The notes beneath the pieces are model-generated. The model was not told the DNA's origin. It saw only the letters and a list, made by a program, of their open reading frames with translations, and did not search any database. A DNA stretch of 64,000 bases, from assembly GCF_053078305.1 (NCBI RefSeq), contig NZ_CP166879.1, one strand, 5' to 3'. Both the position numbers and the translations under genes were made by a program. Shown here one piece after another: positions 6,478 through 28,972 of the stretch. Numbering within the stretch: the first letter of the stretch is position 1; every line of letters begins with the position of its first letter.

Positions 6478-7617
6478 TTACCAGTTATGAATGTCGCTGG
6501 CTGTATCCGTCATGTAACGGACACCGCTAATAGTTGGCAGCAACTGATTGATCAGACGGTTCCAGCGGGAAACCGGGGCGGTGGTGACATACACCACGTC
6601 ATAAGGTTGCAGGCGGAATTCTGTCGCCATCACCAGCGACGTGGCATCGGACATATCCAGCTGGTAGATATTGGCAATCTTGCCGTTACGCCCGCCCTCG
6701 CCTTTCAGCGGACGAATGACAAAGATGCCGCTGGCGTTGGAGGTGGTCATGTCGATGCCTTCAGCATTGCCCAGGGCTTCAGTCAGGGTCATGCCGCTAA
6801 AGTCCATTTTCAGGGTGCTCTGTTTCTTCACTTCACCCATCACAAATACTTTCAGATCATCATTACGTGGCACGTAGAGAATATCGCCGGGGTAAAGCAG
6901 GCGATTCTGGTTGAGGTCGCCGTTTTGCATCAGCGCCTGCAAAGAAATGCGCTCTTCACGACCATTGTGTGTTAGCACCACGTTGCGCCAGTCAGCGGTG
7001 TCGGTCAGGCCACCTGCGGCGTTGATGGCATCGAGAATGGTCAGTGGTACGTTGGTAATCGCCTGTTGACCGGATTTATTCACCTGGCCGGAGATATAGG
7101 CTTTTTGCGAGCGGAAGGCGGCGATATTAACGTCCACCTGCGGGTCAGCGATGTACGTCGCTAAGCGCCCGGTAATATCACTGCGGATTTCAGCGAGCGT
7201 TTTCCCCACGACGTGAACCTTGCCGATATACGGGTAGAACATGGTGCCGTCAGGCTGTACCCAGTTGCCGGTGTCGCTGGAACTGCGGTACTGACCAGCT
7301 GGCGTGGTGAGTTCCGGGTGATCCCAGACGGTGACATTAAGAACGTCGCCCGGCCCGACGCGATACTGGTAATTCGCGATCTCGCTTTCCAGCGTCATAT
7401 TGGGGCGCGCTACATTCGGGCGTGGGCGTAATTGGTCAATCAGGCGCGGGGTCAGCGGATACACATTCACCATTTTGTCGAGATCGAAATCAGCGTCCTG
7501 CTGTTTGATGACGTCTTTGCCCATCGTCGACATATTGCTGCCCGGAAGTACTGTGCAACCGCTTATCAAGGTTACTGACACCAATAATGGCATCAATTTC
7601 ATTTTGGATTTCATCAT
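6478..7617 (-). CDS. wza: outer-membrane polysaccharide export lipoprotein
   Basis: 379 aa; signal peptide with lipobox LISGC; conserved position upstream of wzb/wzc. Confidence 0.9.
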
Positions 7618-7794: not shown

Positions 7795-7806
7795 CACGCT
7801 ACCGCC
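7795..7806 (-). promoter_or_regulatory. ops element (RfaH-dependent antitermination site, part of JUMPstart) in wza leader
   Basis: minus-strand sequence GGCGGTAGCGTG matches ops consensus GGCGGTAGnnTG, ~180 bp upstream of wza start. Confidence 0.6.
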
Positions 7807-8274
7807 CCTGGCTTTTTAGCTACCAATACACTGATTTAGCTTAATTTTTAAAACCCTCTCAACATACAGTCGTTGATGAGAAAGGGTTATTGCGGAAATT
7901 AACTTCCGAATATAAGGTGACATTATGGTAATTGAATATTGGCTCTCCAATAATGCAGGAGGAAGTGTTACAGCTAACGGAATAGCAGGCAAGGTAACAA
8001 TTCGGCAATTGGCTATTTTTAAGAATTATATTAAGTGTCATTCAATATGGTTTTTAGGAGTTTCTTTAGGTTGACAATATTTAATATTGCGTCTCCACAT
8101 GCGATATTTCTTAAATAATGTTTTATTATTACCACTTTTAATTCAGGGATAATGTGAGGTTATTACCCTCAAATAATATGAGATAAATAGTGCTGCAACA
8201 TTGCATTTTTGCCCCGATTTATCCATGATCGAATTGTGACATTTGTCATACAACGAATAGGTTTTGTACTTACT

Positions 8275-22502: not shown

Positions 22503-24166
22503 TGAATAACGCCGAAGAACGCTCACCCTTACTGACGAATACCGTCTCCACCCGCAAAATTGATCTGGCCGGTGAAAAAGCCCTGCTGGGCGTGGATGTG
22601 CCGGACAGCCTTGATTTGCCCGGTGATATGCCGGTGTTTCTGGATTATCAGGCCCGCTGGTTTGAGGATGAAAGCGAGGTCTGCATCGCGGAAAAATCCC
22701 GCCGCACCGGGCTTACCTGGGCGGAAGCCGGGCGTAACGTCATTACCGCTGCAAAACCGAAGCGGCGTGGTGGCCGCAATGTGTTTTATGTGGGGTCAAA
22801 GCAGGAGATGGCGCTGGAATATATTTCTGCCTGTGCATTGTTCTCCCGTGCCTTTAACCAGCTGGCCGATGCTGATGTGTATGAGCAGACCTTCTGGGAT
22901 CGGGATAAAAAAGAAGAAATTCTGACCTACATGATCCGCTTTCCGAACAGTGGATTCAAAATTCAGGCGCTGTCTTCCCGTCCGTCAAACCTGCGCGGCC
23001 TTCAGGGGGATGTGGTGATTGATGAAGCCGCGTTCCACGAGTCGCTGGATGAACTTCTCAAGGCGGCAATGGCGCTTACCATGTGGGGCGCGCGCGTGCG
23101 TATTATCTCCACGCATAACGGCGTCGATAATCTGTTTAATCAGTACATTCAGGAAGCCCGCGAGGGGCGCAAGGATTACAGCGTCCACCGCATTACCCTG
23201 GATGATGCCATTACGGACGGGTTGTACCGTCGTATCTGTTATGTCACCGGCCGCGAATGGTCACCGGAAAGCGAGCAGAAGTGGCGTGATGATCTCTACA
23301 AAAACGCCCCGACCCGTGAGGATGCCGACGAGGAATACGGCTGTATCCCGAAAAAATCCGGCGGTGCCTATATTCCTCACGCACTTATTGAAATGGCGAT
23401 GATCCGCGACATCCCGATTCTGACGTTTGAAGCCCCGGACGACTTCATCAGCCGTGCCGCATGGCTGCGTGAATCGGAAGTTTTAACCTGGTGTGAAGAA
23501 CATTTAAAACCGCTTTTAGAGGCGTTAAATCCCCGTTCCCGCTTCAGCTTCGGGGAAGACTTTGCCCGCACCGGTGACCTGTCCTGCTTTGTGCTGCTGG
23601 AAATCACTGAATCCCTGGCAAAACGCGAGGTGTTTCGCGTGGAGCTGCGCAACCTGCCGTATGCCCAGCAGGAGCAGGTGATGATGTACATCCTGACCCG
23701 CGTTCCGGCGCTGGTCGGTGCGGCGTTCGACGCCACCGGTAACGGCGGCTATCTGGCCGAAGCCGCGCTGCTGGCCTTTGGCCCGGACATCATCGACTGC
23801 GTGATGTTATCGCCGAAGTGGTACGGCGAGTGGATGCCAAAACTGAAGGCCGAGTTTGAAGATCAGAATATCCTCGTCGCCCGCCATCAGACCACGCTTG
23901 ATGATTTGCGCCATGTGAAGATGGTGAACGGTATCCCGCAAATCGACAAGGGGCGCACGAAGGACCAGAACGCAACGGCTGTGAACGCCCGCCGCCATGG
24001 CGATTTTGCCGTGGCGCTCTGTATGGCAAACCGGGCGTCATACATGGAGGGCTTCATCCTGGATGAATCAGCCTGTCAGGCGCTGCCGGAGCGGTCGCGG
24101 GCAATGGAGGGCGGTTATCGTGATGACGATGAGGCATATCATGAATTTGATCGGGGGTGCTGGTAG
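22502..24166 (+). CDS. terminase large subunit
   Basis: 554 aa; ATPase and nuclease regions; position before portal. Confidence 0.85.
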   Translation: MNNAEERSPLLTNTVSTRKIDLAGEKALLGVDVPDSLDLPGDMPVFLDYQARWFEDESEVCIAEKSRRTGLTWAEAGRNVITAAKPKRRGGRNVFYVGSKQEMALEYISACALFSRAFNQLADADVYEQTFWDRDKKEEILTYMIRFPNSGFKIQALSSRPSNLRGLQGDVVIDEAAFHESLDELLKAAMALTMWGARVRIISTHNGVDNLFNQYIQEAREGRKDYSVHRITLDDAITDGLYRRICYVTGREWSPESEQKWRDDLYKNAPTREDADEEYGCIPKKSGGAYIPHALIEMAMIRDIPILTFEAPDDFISRAAWLRESEVLTWCEEHLKPLLEALNPRSRFSFGEDFARTGDLSCFVLLEITESLAKREVFRVELRNLPYAQQEQVMMYILTRVPALVGAAFDATGNGGYLAEAALLAFGPDIIDCVMLSPKWYGEWMPKLKAEFEDQNILVARHQTTLDDLRHVKMVNGIPQIDKGRTKDQNATAVNARRHGDFAVALCMANRASYMEGFILDESACQALPERSRAMEGGYRDDDEAYHEFDRGCW

Positions 24167-25755
24167 TGGGACGCATAATTGATCTTGACGGAAAACCTTT
24201 CTCCTTTGACCCGGAGATGCAGAGTGCCGTGCTGGATATTCCGCAGATTGCCAGCCGTTATATTGAGCATCCGGCCTCGGGTATCACCCCGAACCGGGCG
24301 GCACAGTGCCTTCGCGGGGCTGAACGTGGCGATCTGATTGCCCAGTCCGATCTGGCCGCTGACATTGAAGAAAAGGATACCCATCTTTTTGCAGAGCTGG
24401 GCAAGCGACGTCTTGCCATTCAGGGGGTGCCCTGGAGTATTGAGCCGCCCCCGAACGCCAGCGCGAATGAGAAAAAGGACGCGGAAATGCTCGACGAATA
24501 CCTGCATTCCGCCGACTGGTTTGATGCCATGCTGTTTGATGCCACCGATGCCATCCTGAAAGGCTATTCCTGCATGGAGATTGAGCACGGGATGCTCGGT
24601 AAAATGCACATCATCCGCGCCATCCGCTGGCGTGACAGCGGGCATTTCTGCCTTAACCCGGATGATTTGAGCGAACTGCGGCTGCGTGACGGCAGCCATG
24701 CCGGGGTGGCGTTTCAGCCCTTTGGCTGGATAGTGCATCAGTCACGTTCACGCACCGGTTACGGCGGCGCAACAGGGCTTGTCAGAACGCTTATCTGGCC
24801 GTTCATTTTCAAAAACTATTCCGTGCGCGATCTGGCTGAATTTCTGGAGGTGTACGGCCTGCCGATGAAGGTCGGTAAATACCCGTCCGGGGCAACACCG
24901 GAGCAGAAAAGCGCCCTGATGCGGGCGGTGATGGATATCGGGCGACGTACAGGCGGGATCATCCCGGCCGGGATGTCGCTGGAGTTTCAGGCAGCCGCGA
25001 ACGGTCAGGCCGATCCGTTTGAAACCATGATTTCGTGGGGGGAGCGTTCCATCTCCAAAGCAATACTCGGCGGCACGCTGACCACGGAAGCCGGAGACAA
25101 AGGCGCGCGCTCGCTGGGTGAAGTGCATAACGAGGTGCGCCGGGAAATCAGGGATTCTGATTTACGCCAGCTGGCCGCCACGCTGAACCGCGATCTGGTG
25201 TATCCGCTGTATGCCCTGAACACCGCCCACGCCATTGATATCCGTCGCCTGCCGCGTATCTGTTTCCAGACAAAAGAGCCGGGGGATATCACCAAAATCA
25301 CCAGTGCGGTGATGCAGCTCAGTACGGGGATGGATATTCCTGATCCCTGGATAAGGGAGCAGACCGGTATTCCGCAGCCCACGCCCGGTGAAGCCATCTT
25401 CCGTGTCCGTCAGAGTGGAAATGAACCTGCTCAGACAGACAAAGAGATGCCACCGGAAAAACAGGAGAAGACAGAGCAGACAGCGCTGGCTGCCAGACTG
25501 CCGGAAGCGAAAAGCAGCCCCCGTGATGAACTGGACGACATGGGGGATGCGGTGCCTGCCCGCCGGTTACAGGAGGCCATCGACCCGCTACTGGAGCCGG
25601 TCATTGATGCCATCAGAACGCGGGGGCTGGCGGAGGCACTGGCAGACCTGCCCGCCCTTTACCGTGAAATGGATGATTCCCGCCTGATGACGCTGCTCAG
25701 TGATGCCATGTTTGCTGCGGAAATGAAGGGGATGCTGGATGGCACAGGGGATTGA
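24157..25755 (+). CDS. portal protein (Mu gp29 family)
   Basis: 532 aa; position between terminase and F. Confidence 0.85.
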   Translation: MLVVGRIIDLDGKPFSFDPEMQSAVLDIPQIASRYIEHPASGITPNRAAQCLRGAERGDLIAQSDLAADIEEKDTHLFAELGKRRLAIQGVPWSIEPPPNASANEKKDAEMLDEYLHSADWFDAMLFDATDAILKGYSCMEIEHGMLGKMHIIRAIRWRDSGHFCLNPDDLSELRLRDGSHAGVAFQPFGWIVHQSRSRTGYGGATGLVRTLIWPFIFKNYSVRDLAEFLEVYGLPMKVGKYPSGATPEQKSALMRAVMDIGRRTGGIIPAGMSLEFQAAANGQADPFETMISWGERSISKAILGGTLTTEAGDKGARSLGEVHNEVRREIRDSDLRQLAATLNRDLVYPLYALNTAHAIDIRRLPRICFQTKEPGDITKITSAVMQLSTGMDIPDPWIREQTGIPQPTPGEAIFRVRQSGNEPAQTDKEMPPEKQEKTEQTALAARLPEAKSSPRDELDDMGDAVPARRLQEAIDPLLEPVIDAIRTRGLAEALADLPALYREMDDSRLMTLLSDAMFAAEMKGMLDGTGD

Positions 25756-27064
25756 TTTAGGTTATGCCGCCACCCTTCCCTCAAAAGAGGCGGTGGCATA
25801 CTTCCGCGCCAAAGGGGCGCATATCAGCTGGAACTGGTTCGAAACAGACGCGGATGTTCATGCCCGTTCATTCACGGCGGCAAAAGCGGCACGCCTGGAC
25901 GTACTGACTACACTACAGGCGGAAGTGCAACGGGCTATTGATGAGGGGATTTCACAGAAAGCATTTATCCGCACACTGACCCCCCGCCTGCAAAAGCTGG
26001 GATGGTGGGGAAAGCAGATTGTGGTGGACAGCGCTGGTAACGCAGAAGAAGTGCAGCTGGGCAGTCCCCGCCGTCTGGCGCTGATTTACAACGTGAACAC
26101 CCGCGTGGCTTACAATGCCGGGCGTTACACGCAGATGATGAACAACACGGACACGCATCCGTTCTGGCAGTATGTGGCGGTGATGGACAGCCGCACCCGC
26201 CCGGCGCATTCCGCCCTTAACGGGCTGGTATTCCGCTATGACGATCCGTTCTGGAAAACACACTACCCGCCCAATGGCTGGAACTGCCGCTGCCGTGTCC
26301 GGCCATTGTCTCAGGCCCGTCTGGATGCGATGGGGCTGTCTGTTTCATCCGGTCAGGATCATCTCTCCACCCGCAATGTTGAGGCTGGCGTGGATAAGCA
26401 GACCGGGGAAGTCAGAGAAATGCCGGTGACCACATATTCAGATGGCACCAGAACCATGACACCGGATGTGGGCTGGTCATATAACCCCGGTTCGGCGGCG
26501 TTCGGCACAGACCAGGCGCTGATCCGTAAACTGATCGAGGTGAAAAGCCCGGCGTTACGGGAAATGGTGGTTCAGGAGATGAACAACAGCCCGGAGCGGC
26601 AGCTGGCGTTCCGCATCTGGGCAAAAAACATCATGAAAACCCGGCGAGGCGGTAACGATATCCGCACGCTGGGCTTTATGACCGAAAGTATTGCGCAGGC
26701 GGTGGAAAGCCGGACGGGAACGCCACCGGCCCGCCTGCTGGCGATGAGCGGTAAAAATGTGCTCCATGCGGACAGCGTGAAACATCAGAATGACGGTATC
26801 GCCCTGACGCCGGAGGATTTCGCGCAGTTTCCCGCCATGCTGGCTGCCCCCGATGCCGTGCTGTGGGATCATGTCCATCAGAACTTGCTTTACATCACTG
26901 AAACCCGTGACGGAACGGCAAAGATTGCCGTCAATGCGCCTTATAGTGTGAAACGTCAGCCGGATAAGCTGGATGTGGTGATTAATGCCTATAGAGTGAG
27001 CAGGAATACTCTGATTGATGCTGTTCAGGGAGGTAAGATGGAGATCCTCGAAGGGAAATTGTAA
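25739..27064 (+). CDS. Mu F-like head morphogenesis protein
   Basis: 441 aa; position after portal; size as Mu gpF. Confidence 0.8.
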   Translation: MAQGIDLGYAATLPSKEAVAYFRAKGAHISWNWFETDADVHARSFTAAKAARLDVLTTLQAEVQRAIDEGISQKAFIRTLTPRLQKLGWWGKQIVVDSAGNAEEVQLGSPRRLALIYNVNTRVAYNAGRYTQMMNNTDTHPFWQYVAVMDSRTRPAHSALNGLVFRYDDPFWKTHYPPNGWNCRCRVRPLSQARLDAMGLSVSSGQDHLSTRNVEAGVDKQTGEVREMPVTTYSDGTRTMTPDVGWSYNPGSAAFGTDQALIRKLIEVKSPALREMVVQEMNNSPERQLAFRIWAKNIMKTRRGGNDIRTLGFMTESIAQAVESRTGTPPARLLAMSGKNVLHADSVKHQNDGIALTPEDFAQFPAMLAAPDAVLWDHVHQNLLYITETRDGTAKIAVNAPYSVKRQPDKLDVVINAYRVSRNTLIDAVQGGKMEILEGKL

Positions 27065-27151
27065 GTCGGTGGTGGGGGTCGAACCCACATAAACATCCTT
27101 CGGGTGAAGATATCCCTCAGGTGCCGCTTTACCAGTTAAGAGTACACCGAC
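27065..27151 (-). tRNA. degenerate tRNA-Leu-like element (anticodon-loop GAG), no encoded CCA
   Basis: minus strand: 7-bp acceptor stem GTCGGTG/CACCGAC, consensus T-arm GTGGG-TTCGACC-CCCAC adjacent to acceptor 3' strand, U8, loop CTGAGGG with U33, ~20-nt variable region; D and anticodon stems imperfect. Confidence 0.4.
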
Positions 27152-27189
27152 CTGCTTTTATTTTAACCAGGTAGTTTCACGGAGGCAAT

Positions 27190-27663
27190 ATGTCATCCAT
27201 TGATGCCGCTGTCGTTGTTGACGTTACGCGTCTCCAGCGGGTCTTTGCCCGGCTTCAGTTTGTGGGTGGTGGAAAAGACCTGGCCCGCAGTGTGGCGGCG
27301 AGTCTTCTGTCATCGTCAGAAATGGCGTTTGAACAGGAAAAAGAGCCGGACGGCGAACGCTGGCATGACTGGTCAGATCCTTACCGCAAGTGGCGTACCC
27401 GTAAGGGATACATGCCCGGCAAAATCCTGACGCTGAACGGCGATCTGGCCCGACGCCTGACCACGGATTATGGAGATACCTGGGCGCTGATTGGATCAAA
27501 TGAGCCTTATGCGGCCATTCATCAGTGGGGTGGCCTGCCAGGTATGCCGCCTGGACCGGCGGCCATTGGTGCACGTCCGTATATGGGCTTTGATCAGGTG
27601 GCAGAGCAGGAGATCATGGACGAAATCAGAAAACGCTTTAAAAAGGCCACAGAAACGCCTTAA
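27190..27663 (+). CDS. virion morphogenesis protein (Mu G family)
   Basis: 157 aa; position after F. Confidence 0.7.
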   Translation: MSSIDAAVVVDVTRLQRVFARLQFVGGGKDLARSVAASLLSSSEMAFEQEKEPDGERWHDWSDPYRKWRTRKGYMPGKILTLNGDLARRLTTDYGDTWALIGSNEPYAAIHQWGGLPGMPPGPAAIGARPYMGFDQVAEQEIMDEIRKRFKKATETP

Positions 27664-27838
27664 TTGTTTAAGGTATGCAAATGCATTACCTTACCCCCTT
27701 CAGGCGCGTGTCGTGATTTTCTAACCTGTATTTAACGGGCTTTAAAATCTGCGTGAAGCGCCTTTGCATTTTTCCCTGAAAATACTTCCTGAAATCCCGC
27801 AAAACCCGCCCTGAAAATTCCCGGCTTATGCTGCCGGT
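27664..27838 (+). promoter_or_regulatory. candidate C-dependent late promoter region upstream of protease/scaffold gene (PI-like)
   Basis: 175-bp gap in otherwise tightly packed late genes; three direct CCTGAAA(A)T repeats and a near-palindrome GGTATGCAAATGCATTACC; Mu has a late promoter at this position. Confidence 0.35.
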
Positions 27839-28972
27839 ATGAAGACAGAAAATCACCCAAAAGACGCAAATCGCCCCTCTGGTTTAGCCGTGCTTTCAGC
27901 TTCGCTGACTGCATCCGGCGACGGATGGTGTCAGTTACTGCCAGCAGGCAGGGTAAAGGCCCGTGACGGTCGCCCGGAAAAACCGGCTGAAGGCTGGCTG
28001 ATTAACGAATCCGCCTGCAACCGGATGAAAGCCGGGCTTTCCGCCCTGAATCAGCCGTTACTGATTGATTATGACCATCACTCCATGAATGCGCGGAAAA
28101 ACGGATTCAAGGCCATTGCCGCAGGTTGGGTTAAGCCGGAAAACATCGAATGGCGTGAGGGTCAGGGGATTTTCATTAAACCTGAATGGACGCCGCAGGC
28201 CCAAAAACATATTGATGACCGTGAATATGCCTATCTGTCTGCGTATATGCATTATTTCGCTGACACCGGGGAACCCTACCTGTTGCGCATGGCTTCCCTG
28301 ACGAATGATCCAGGTATTACGGGTATGAACCCTGTCGCAGCACTCAGTGCTGACGATCTCTATGTAGTTTCCCCTTCTCAGGAGCAACACCCCATGAATG
28401 AGCAATTACGCCAGTTGCTGACGGCGCTCGGTCTGACCGTGGCTGATGGTGACGAATTTACGCCGGAGCTGGGCACGGCAGCGCTGTCTGCCCTCACCGG
28501 GATCAAAACCCGTGCGGATGCACACGACAACCTGAAAACACAGGTCGCCTGTCTGTCGGCAGAGCTGGAAACTGCAAAAGGCACACCGGCTGGCGGCAGT
28601 ATTGATCTGACGAAATACGTGCCCGTTGAAACGTATAACGCCCTGCGTACCGAATACGTTGCGCTGTCGGCGCAGCACGGCAGCACCACGCTGGAGCAGT
28701 TGCTGGACAAGGCCGAGTCCGAAGGACGCATCTTCAAAAGTGAACGCGGCTATCTGGAACAACTGGGCGGGCAGATTGGCGTGGCGGCACTTTCTGCACA
28801 GCTTGACGCCCGACAGCCGGTTGCGGCCCTGACCGGTCTTCAGACCGACACCGTGACCGTGCCGGATAAAAAGACTGCCACCGCTGTGCTGTCGGCTGAA
28901 GATATCGCGGCCGCCAAACTGCTGGGTAAAACCGAAGCCGAGTTCCTGAAAATGAAAGAGGAAATGCAATAA
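27839..28972 (+). CDS. head maturation protease / scaffold (Mu I family)
   Basis: 377 aa; N-terminal protease-like region, C-terminal helical Ala/Leu-rich scaffold-like region; order I-T. Confidence 0.8.
   Translation: MKTENHPKDANRPSGLAVLSASLTASGDGWCQLLPAGRVKARDGRPEKPAEGWLINESACNRMKAGLSALNQPLLIDYDHHSMNARKNGFKAIAAGWVKPENIEWREGQGIFIKPEWTPQAQKHIDDREYAYLSAYMHYFADTGEPYLLRMASLTNDPGITGMNPVAALSADDLYVVSPSQEQHPMNEQLRQLLTALGLTVADGDEFTPELGTAALSALTGIKTRADAHDNLKTQVACLSAELETAKGTPAGGSIDLTKYVPVETYNALRTEYVALSAQHGSTTLEQLLDKAESEGRIFKSERGYLEQLGGQIGVAALSAQLDARQPVAALTGLQTDTVTVPDKKTATAVLSAEDIAAAKLLGKTEAEFLKMKEEMQ

Follow-up and report, generated by a model that had tools for sequence, protein, structure and literature searches.

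A predicted minus-strand RNA of tRNA-like fold between head genes F and G of a Mu-like Escherichia coli prophage and its association with a putative RNase motif in F

The window studied here, meaning the whole stretch of 64,000 nucleotides (nt) from contig NZ_CP166879.1 (assembly GCF_053078305.1), represents an Escherichia coli Mu-like prophage of the Sakai Sp18 type in which the listed genes of the head region all lie on the plus strand. In phage Mu the last 4 nt of head gene F are shared with G and a spacer is absent, in agreement with an earlier note on this DNA which had remarked that Mu has no such RNA here. In the window the F stop codon is followed by a spacer, and the minus strand of positions 27065-27151 of this spacer has the shape of a tRNA core. 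Inspection of the spacer for coding potential yielded nothing above open reading frames of 23-25 amino acids. The comparison with relatives described below makes the fold of this RNA certain, and it ties the RNA to those F proteins which keep the motif of a predicted RNase domain. It is proposed, with a probability of roughly 0.4, that the RNA may be an uncleavable tRNA mimic which neutralises or partners this putative RNase.

The region is carried by 264 of 5426 complete E. coli genomes (about 5%), which supply 265 records, prophage Sp18 of the reference O157:H7 strain Sakai included. In most of these records the same 88 nt and strand bear the PGAP label 'tRNA-OTHER', which assigns no isotype. 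This automatic label, or no annotation at all, is the only form in which the RNA family is known so far. At most loci the RNA begins 0-2 nt past the stop codon of F, and in the window the 3' strand of the whole predicted RNA shares two bases with this codon (27062-27064).

On the minus strand positions 27065-27151 read GUCGGUG-UA-CUCUUAACUGGUAAAGCGG-(31-nt centre)-UUAU-GUGGG-UUCGACC-CCCAC-CACCGAC. The earlier description of an acceptor stem of 7 base pairs (bp), a T-arm and U8 holds for this strand, and CCA is indeed not encoded. The tRNA model of Rfam, RF00005, proposed earlier as a check, covers the minus strand end to end (model positions 1-71) with 30.0 bits and an E value of 6e-4, the gathering score being 29, and places a 26-nt insert where the anticodon loop would be. 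To obtain this match, a short stretch has to be searched under lax filters; a default run on the whole window omits it at 27064-27151, so that routine Rfam annotation would overlook the RNA family. ARAGORN finds neither a tRNA nor a transfer-messenger RNA (tmRNA) at the element and calls no member of the family as a tRNA. Rfam gave no match of this RNA, which is just about 90 nt long, to tmRNA at E values up to 10, and none of the element to YrlA or other bacterial Y RNAs. Folding of the single sequence was insignificant on both strands (z of -0.93 for the minus and -1.26 for the plus strand) and is uninformative.

A covariance model of the family itself, called R1, recognises the element with 83.9 bits (E 4e-18) as its sole match within the window. 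Family members score 44-93 bits with this model, only the copy at L188:119-198 (L numbers denote the loci of relatives) staying below 53, and genuine tRNAs in the same loci reach 24-41 bits. Two far-diverged phage copies (L135 and L140) obtain 36-47 bits, which overlaps the range of the true tRNAs. A BLAST search of the element against phages and plasmids returned nothing except generic matches to the T-arm of phage tRNA-Leu, from which no parent tRNA could be identified. The proposed likeness to tRNA-Leu comes down to these non-significant T-arm matches, and none of the relatives has an anticodon loop.

Relatives were gathered via the G protein, a DNA pattern of the D-arm, the C-terminus of F, a scan of species-representative genomes, which yielded Citrobacter braakii, a Shewanella sp. 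and Edwardsiella anguillarum, and a scan of metagenomes. In an initial four-way alignment the acceptor, D and T arms were kept with compensatory changes around a centre of unrelated sequence. The structure was then tested as 19 pairs, comprising a closing helix of 9 bp, a D stem of 5 bp with one bulge, and a T stem of 5 bp. In the alignment A2, which contains 22 distinct sequences, 97.8% of the cells are paired and 11 of the 19 pairs are changed on both sides. The covariation score of A2 was reached by none of 500 shuffles, and pairing drops to 35-59% when the 3' partners are slid. When 34 distinct sequences were aligned to R1, an alignment which is fitted to that model, 98.4% of the cells were paired and both partners had changed in 16 of the 19 pairs, all nine of the closing helix among them, with at most 53% paired in the slid controls. 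The D stem had been called weak; it is a conserved stem whose second pair, at columns 15:31, covaries (U.G in 8, G-C in 7 and U-A in 6 sequences). The unpaired core of a tRNA is invariant or nearly so, as seen for U8, A9, the D-loop AAyyGGUA and the T-loop UUCGA.

Pairing of 98% of the cells together with compensatory changes in 16 of 19 pairs means that the element is under strong structural selection and is not a decayed tRNA. Among the possibilities listed in the earlier note, a tRNA-like RNA on the minus strand is thus borne out by both the RF00005 match and the covariation among related prophages, and the description as a degenerate phage tRNA has to be given up. An integration target is not supported either, since covariation at the level of RNA is not expected of a DNA site.

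Several features favour the minus strand as the one from which the RNA is read. Cells with G.U outnumber those with A.C by 25 to 4, pairing amounts to 97.8% for the minus strand and 92.8% if the plus strand is assumed, and tetraloops of the UNCG type arise in the minus-strand reading only. A consensus scan found a -10 box upstream of the RNA, and a start 7 nt past this box would place the 5' end at 27153, where the 9-bp helix begins. A hexamer with at least five of six matches to the -10 consensus, ending 8-14 nt upstream of +1, occurs in 30 of 34 distinct upstream regions, while shuffled sequences gave 2.8 on average and 8 at most. It appears in the forms TAAAAT, TATACT, TATAAT and TATATT (TAnnnT), and its presence in differing forms points to function rather than shared descent. 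At a spacing of 17 nt lies a -35-like TTGCCT, for which the evidence is weaker than for the -10 box. It overlaps the Shine-Dalgarno sequence GGAGG of G on the plus strand (27181-27185). At this overlap GGAGGCAA(T/C)ATG is kept across many relatives, which suggests a dual constraint or transcriptional interference of the RNA gene with the late operon. An intrinsic terminator with a canonical hairpin and U-run lies 3' of the RNA in L135, and U-runs lie 3' of copies outside the F-G spacer in L166 and L181. From the G.U bias, the tetraloops, the -10 box and the terminators in some relatives, the RNA is predicted to be a separate gene on the minus strand with a sigma-70-type promoter and a start at or near 27153.

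These data also bear on the view that the element is a tRNA pseudogene in decay, an integration site, or a structure acting in the plus-strand late mRNA as a terminator or stabiliser. A marginal score with the tRNA model, the negative result of ARAGORN and a T-rich run after the stem on the plus strand are what could be cited in its favour. Compensatory changes in 16 of 19 pairs, the asymmetry of G.U and the tetraloops favour a structured minus-strand RNA, and what is conserved downstream on the plus strand is not a U-tract but the minus-strand -10 box in forms such as TATACT, TATATT and TAAAAT. This view is largely refuted and very improbable, the late-mRNA structure suggested earlier being disfavoured with it. 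A second possibility is a cis-antisense regulator which pairs with the F-G junction of the late mRNA; it would tune the expression of F or G or direct cleavage by RNase III, and would have adopted the tRNA shape only for stability. It would agree with the exact complementarity to the late transcript and with a promoter overlapping the ribosome-binding site of G. It leaves unexplained why every nucleotide of the tRNA tertiary core should be retained, why copies exist far from F and G, and why the RNA is linked to a motif in F; moreover, an RNA that is tightly folded and closed at its ends is ill suited to antisense pairing. When the window was searched for other sequences complementary to the variable hairpin, nothing beyond chance appeared, the longest run being 10 nt compared with 9-13 nt in shuffles. 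A role in antisense regulation is therefore regarded as improbable.

Though the core is that of a tRNA, both working ends depart from it. In all of 39 distinct cores (70-100 nt) one central hairpin occupies the place of the anticodon arm, with a stem of 6-17 bp and a loop of 3-10 nt, its sequence being unrelated between lineages and even between sister phages. The loops are UUCG in eight cores and UCCG in three, in unrelated stems, and an anticodon loop of 7 nt is found in none of the 39. The sequence CTGAGGG, which had been taken as an anticodon-like loop, sits inside this long hairpin and has no counterpart in sister phages, and the supposed long class-II variable region is a short UUAU in front of the T-arm. 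The acceptor helix never stops at 7 bp but goes on with the covarying pairs -1:73 and -2:74 (G-C, A-U, G.U, U-A and U.G), and in some lineages the closing helix reaches 11-15 bp. With a helix of at least 9 bp and both ends paired, no free 3' end is encoded. The RNA shares with tRNAs (RF00005), phage tRNAs among them, the 7-bp acceptor, D-arm, T-arm, U8, A14, G18-G19, A21, UUCGA and G53:C61, but lacks the anticodon arm (5-bp stem, 7-nt loop and U33) and the single-stranded N73-CCA end. It is thus apparently the body of a tRNA without an anticodon and without a free acceptor end.

A molecule of this kind could still be charged without decoding, if RNase P and the CCA-adding enzyme matured it before aminoacylation. 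The canonical tRNA core, and a G-1:C73 pair in many variants which resembles that of tRNA-His, would be in line with this. The pair -1:73 also occurs as A-U, U-A, G.U and U.G, and pairing extends to -2:74 and up to 15 bp, which argues for a closed helix; in addition, CCA is not encoded and the predicted start coincides with the base of the helix. Charging thus appears very improbable. As to the origin of the family, the nearest true tRNAs met are genes labelled 'tRNA-Asn(GUU)' in phage tRNA clusters (L189:6894-6979 and L193:58-142), which are 85-86 nt long and class-II-like with a long extra arm. They have the D-arm sequence of the family, which suggests that the element derives from a phage tRNA, this unusual 'tRNA-Asn(GUU)' being a possible ancestor type.

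The gene which ends next to the RNA encodes the head protein F. Pfam assigns to it the domains PF04233 (Phage_Mu_F, 5e-29) and PF18819 (MuF_C, i-E-value 3e-7, residues 347-426). MuF-C has been described as a PBECR domain, the phage branch of the barnase/EndoU/colicin D-E5/RelE (BECR) fold of metal-independent RNases, with a catalytic histidine in the first helix; the copy in Mu is considered inactive, and activity is predicted for its orthologues (Iyer et al. 2017, PMC5512222, section 19 for the catalytic histidine). F itself is a head protein which is believed to be injected (PMC5512222). In the window the motif L-H-A-D-S-V-K-H stands at the start of this domain, and every RNA-positive locus keeps its residues His343 and His349, which have been lost from Mu and from the other RNA-negative F proteins. 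Neither Foldseek against the PDB nor a profile search of PDB sequences gave a match to the C-terminus of F. From its sequence the C-terminal domain of F is predicted to have the BECR fold and to be an RNase like colicin D, RelE and CdiA-CT.

The co-occurrence of RNA and motif was examined in 75 loci found through the C-terminus of F, in 53 of which R1 finds the RNA. All 53 encode an F protein with L-x-H-[A/T/I]-[D/Y]-S-x-[K/R]-H and, further on, [I/V]-N-x-[Y/F]-[R/K/Q]. All 19 informative RNA-negative loci are without the histidine of the motif, as is Mu. The spacers from F to G mostly measure 85-159 nt at RNA-positive loci and -4 to 25 nt at RNA-negative loci; the 49 nt which an automated start finder gave for the RNA-positive L090 and L150 probably reflect a mis-called start of G. 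The RNA-negative F proteins differ from the motif in several ways. Those of the Mu type carry a deletion of seven residues in it. In L136-139 the domain is kept with His changed to Gln and, later in the domain, Asn to Thr and Tyr to Gln, and the spacer measures 0 nt. In L151, L155/157/161 and L158-164 the domains are diverged or replaced. In a neighbour-joining tree built from 300 residues of F, the C-terminal domain excluded, RNA-negative groups turn up at scattered places between RNA-positive ones; at least five such groups are clear, and Fitch parsimony requires a minimum of seven changes. L136/137 are sister to L135, which has both the histidine and the RNA.

Four loci which looked like exceptions can be explained: L153 and L154 lie at the ends of contigs, L167 represents a remnant next to dusB-fis, and in L114 a deletion fuses F to a downstream tail gene. 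In this last locus (L114:1540-1980), a defective prophage, about codon 120 of the F C-terminal domain is joined to a YmfQ/gp48-like tail gene, and the deletion has taken out the RNA, G, and head and tail genes. As an observed correlation, then, the RNA occurs only with an F whose MuF-C domain keeps the His/Asp/Ser/Lys/His motif. This corresponds to the layout of toxin-immunity loci, in that a partner gene lies directly downstream of the toxin domain and is inherited together with it. Mom or another tRNA-using enzyme of the prophage was also considered as a partner and dismissed, the gene content being that of an ordinary Mu-like phage and Mu having Mom without the RNA.

Copies of the RNA are also found outside the F-G spacer. 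In 13 complete E. coli genomes three tandem and mutually divergent copies occupy the right-hand end of an island next to dinD, the genes of which (integrase, AntA-like, Icd-like, toprim + DUF927 primase, PerC and a Mor-family activator) give it a satellite-like make-up. Arrays of two or three copies, each followed by a U-run, are located at L166:1128-1436 and L199:9730-10040, and the same arrangement is seen in L168, L180 and L187. PGAP labels the copies in the arrays tRNA-OTHER and one of them 'tRNA-Tyr', probably a mis-call from a palindromic hairpin which contains GUA. A reduced Mu-like element (L048:5671-14313, also L053, L064 and L198) has a MuB-like, a Mor-like and a major head protein, is devoid of portal, F and protease, and contains one orphan copy with a closing helix of 15 bp just upstream of a DUF2971 gene, the candidate defence gene PDC-S31 of PADLOC. 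This element could be a satellite of Mu-like phages, and one genome holds it along with a full Mu-like prophage that has an active-type F and an RNA of its own (L053, L054). A further orphan at L181:6355-6432, which has TATATT as its -10 box and a tail rich in U, is situated about 230 nt upstream of a CRISPR array which starts at 6663 and has 50 repeats of GTTTCAATCCACGCGCCTGCGGGAGGCGCGAC. Two short metagenome contigs (L188:119-834 and L173:1202-1624) show the order RNA, C-terminal fragment of F, RNA, with truncated starts of G interspersed. This order recalls the cassettes of orphan toxin tips and immunity genes; the contigs are short, and their frameshifts may be sequencing errors. Orphan copies at other places, as known for immunity genes, are thus found repeatedly, and cassettes with an F fragment in these two short contigs only. 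The copies outside the F-G spacer mark the RNA as a portable, trans-acting module which is found with Mu-type biology.

The RNA could also be a general tRNA decoy independent of F, which might sequester host enzymes that bind the body of a tRNA and so act in anti-defence, or might serve in lysogenic conversion or defence, with its link to the motif due to physical linkage. Decoy RNAs are a known theme in phages. The RNA has a promoter of its own, lies antisense to the late operon as a moron would, and has orphan copies which adjoin the PDC-S31/DUF2971 candidate defence gene and a CRISPR array. Against independence from F stands the association itself, 53 to 0 versus 0 to 19, which extends over at least five independent lineages, and the finding that point-mutated motifs go with a precise deletion of the RNA. 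An F-independent decoy is on this account unlikely.

In the proposed mechanism the RNA is instead linked to F. The prophage would transcribe the minus-strand RNA of about 90 nt constitutively in the lysogen. The RNA retains the L-shaped body of a tRNA, with its U8/A14 core, G18-G19 in the D-loop, UUCGA in the T-loop and the T-stem, both single-stranded working ends being gone. Known BECR tRNases cut either the anticodon loop, as colicins D and E5 do, or the 3' acceptor end, as some CdiA-CT toxins do. In the RNA both of these sites are absent or sealed, and the RNase domain of F could bind it as an uncuttable pseudo-substrate and would be kept harmless in this way. The lysogen and the cell producing virions would thereby be protected, and the RNA would serve as an 'immunity' factor. 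Orphan copies in satellites and host islands might then be stand-alone antidotes or decoys. The immunity protein of colicin D, which works through imitation of a tRNA, provides a precedent, and the position of the RNA is that of the immunity gene in polymorphic toxin loci.

The same partnership with F could have the opposite sense, the RNA being a substrate, cofactor or cargo of the RNase which is processed, helps to load the prohead, or is packaged and injected together with F. That the RNA co-occurs with the intact motif, that its gene is placed within the block of head genes and that F is believed to be injected (PMC5512222) would all be compatible with such a role. Orphan copies in elements which have no F suit a protective function better, and sealed ends and UUCG caps give the RNA the look of a molecule that resists cleavage. 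A substrate or cargo is for these reasons considered quite unlikely.

Several points weigh against an uncleavable mimic. A decoy which has neither an anticodon loop nor a free 3' end could bind only if the enzyme reads the body of the tRNA. The late mRNA carries the exact complement of the RNA, and antisense effects are possible. As the RNA adjoins the C-terminus of F, joint loss or replacement of the two could partly reflect one recombination event instead of function, and the correlation may be inflated. At no locus is the RNA combined with a dead motif, a state which a model based on immunity would tolerate, at least for a short time. A recognisable terminator is missing 3' of the RNA in the window, where the flank is the coding sequence of F, and the 3' end may be formed by Rho-dependent termination and trimming. 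Finally, the search of transcriptome papers on strain Sakai gave nothing usable on expression of the RNA near ECs4971/4972.

Comparison with known systems places the RNA near several of them without identity to any. Non-decoding RNAs which keep the elbow of a tRNA and come from mobile elements or take part in RNA surveillance include the tRNA-like domains of tmRNA and YrlA and the vtRNAs of the herpesvirus MHV68. The RNA studied here does not belong to the tmRNAs, which have a free chargeable CCA end, a reading frame for the tag and pseudoknots. YrlA is circularly permuted, ends at the anticodon side and is encoded beside rsr, whereas the present RNA ends at the acceptor side and lies beside F and G. 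Unlike it, none of these RNAs is tied to a phage head protein. Engineered 'tRNA scaffold' RNAs, in which the anticodon arm is exchanged for a cargo hairpin, have an identical architecture, and E. coli tolerates and stabilises such tRNA bodies; these are man-made and have normal tRNA ends which are processed by RNase P and the CCA enzyme. Among toxin systems, colicin D/ImmD, CdiA-CT/CdiI and the toxins fused to MuF differ in that here the putative immunity gene encodes an RNA on the opposite strand with its own promoter. A structured RNA which neutralises an endoribonuclease, here putatively, and has copies in phages and satellites is also seen with type III ToxI and the pseudo-ToxI of phages. 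ToxI is a tandem repeat cut by its own toxin and folds as a pseudoknot, and the fold of ToxN is another one; the RNA of the window is single-copy and F is not ToxN-like. By analogy the RNA may work most like a tRNA mimic in a toxin-immunity arrangement.

A survey of the searchable literature found no description of a tRNA-like RNA in Mu-like phages, of the prophage tRNA-OTHER, of relevant tRNA decoys or of experiments on PBECR domains. If expressed, the RNA would add a well-defined new family to the few bacterial tRNA mimics, and RNA-based immunity to a delivered RNase, if confirmed, would be categorically new. The most far-reaching view, which is somewhat doubtful, sees in it the first 'immunity factor' of RNA nature against a toxin delivered by the virion: the tRNA body, devoid of sites that can be cut, would block the BECR-type RNase at the tip of F, the prophage would make it constitutively, and satellites and host islands would have taken up single copies and arrays as independent antidotes to Mu-like phages. 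Should the RNA neutralise a delivered RNase by imitation of its substrate, polymorphic toxins, RNA antitoxins and the conflicts of phages and satellites would become linked. The exclusive association with an intact MuF-C offers a first experimental handle on a domain that has so far been only predicted as an RNase, and annotation pipelines should stop labelling these loci as tRNAs. The positions of the RNA, its parts, its promoter and the surrounding genes are collected in Table 1.

Table 1. Coordinates in the window of the predicted RNA, its structural parts, its putative promoter and the neighbouring head-region genes.
Feature	Position	Strand	Remarks
Portal gene	24157-25755	+	
Gene F (MuF/gp30 family, 441 amino acids)	25739-27064	+	Phage_Mu_F and C-terminal MuF_C domains
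Motif L-H-A-D-S-V-K-H, residues 342-349 of F, start of MuF-C; predicted catalytic His	26762-26785	+	from translation
Whole RNA (predicted), about 91 nt: tRNA-shaped core with closing pairs -2:74 and -1:73	27063-27153	-	
tRNA-like core, 87 nt	27065-27151	-	RF00005 match; PGAP tRNA-OTHER at the homologous position
Closing ('acceptor') helix, 5' strand: A-2, G-1, GUCGGUG	27145-27153	-	9 of 9 pairs change on both sides
U8 and A9	27144-27143	-	
D-arm CUCUU-AACUGGUA-AAG(C)GG with A14, A15, G18, G19, A21	27124-27142	-	columns invariant in A2
Central hairpin CACC-UGA-GGG-AUAUCUUCA-CCC-GAA-GG(A)UG, at the place of the anticodon arm	27093-27123	-	hypervariable among relatives
Variable loop UUAU, short	27089-27092	-	
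T-arm GUGGG-UUCGACC-CCCAC	27072-27088	-	T-stem 100% paired, 3 pairs covary, UUCGA conserved
Closing helix, 3' strand: CACCGAC, U73, U74; CCA not encoded	27063-27071	-	
-10 box TAAAAT	27160-27165	-	consensus scan
-35-like TTGCCT, 17-nt spacer	27183-27188	-	weaker evidence than for the -10 box
Gene G (virion morphogenesis, 157 amino acids), neighbour downstream of the RNA gene	27190-27663	+	
Protease I gene	27839-28972	+	
Major head protein T gene	from 28972	+	

In the record of Mu the cut of the strong gyrase site is annotated just after G, a position which in the window is that of the 175-nt spacer between G and I (27664-27838). Matches at the gathering level of Rfam were obtained in the window for the small RNA C0465 (61510-61587, minus strand) and for JUMPstart (7795-7833, minus strand), both of which are features of the host chromosome flanking the prophage.

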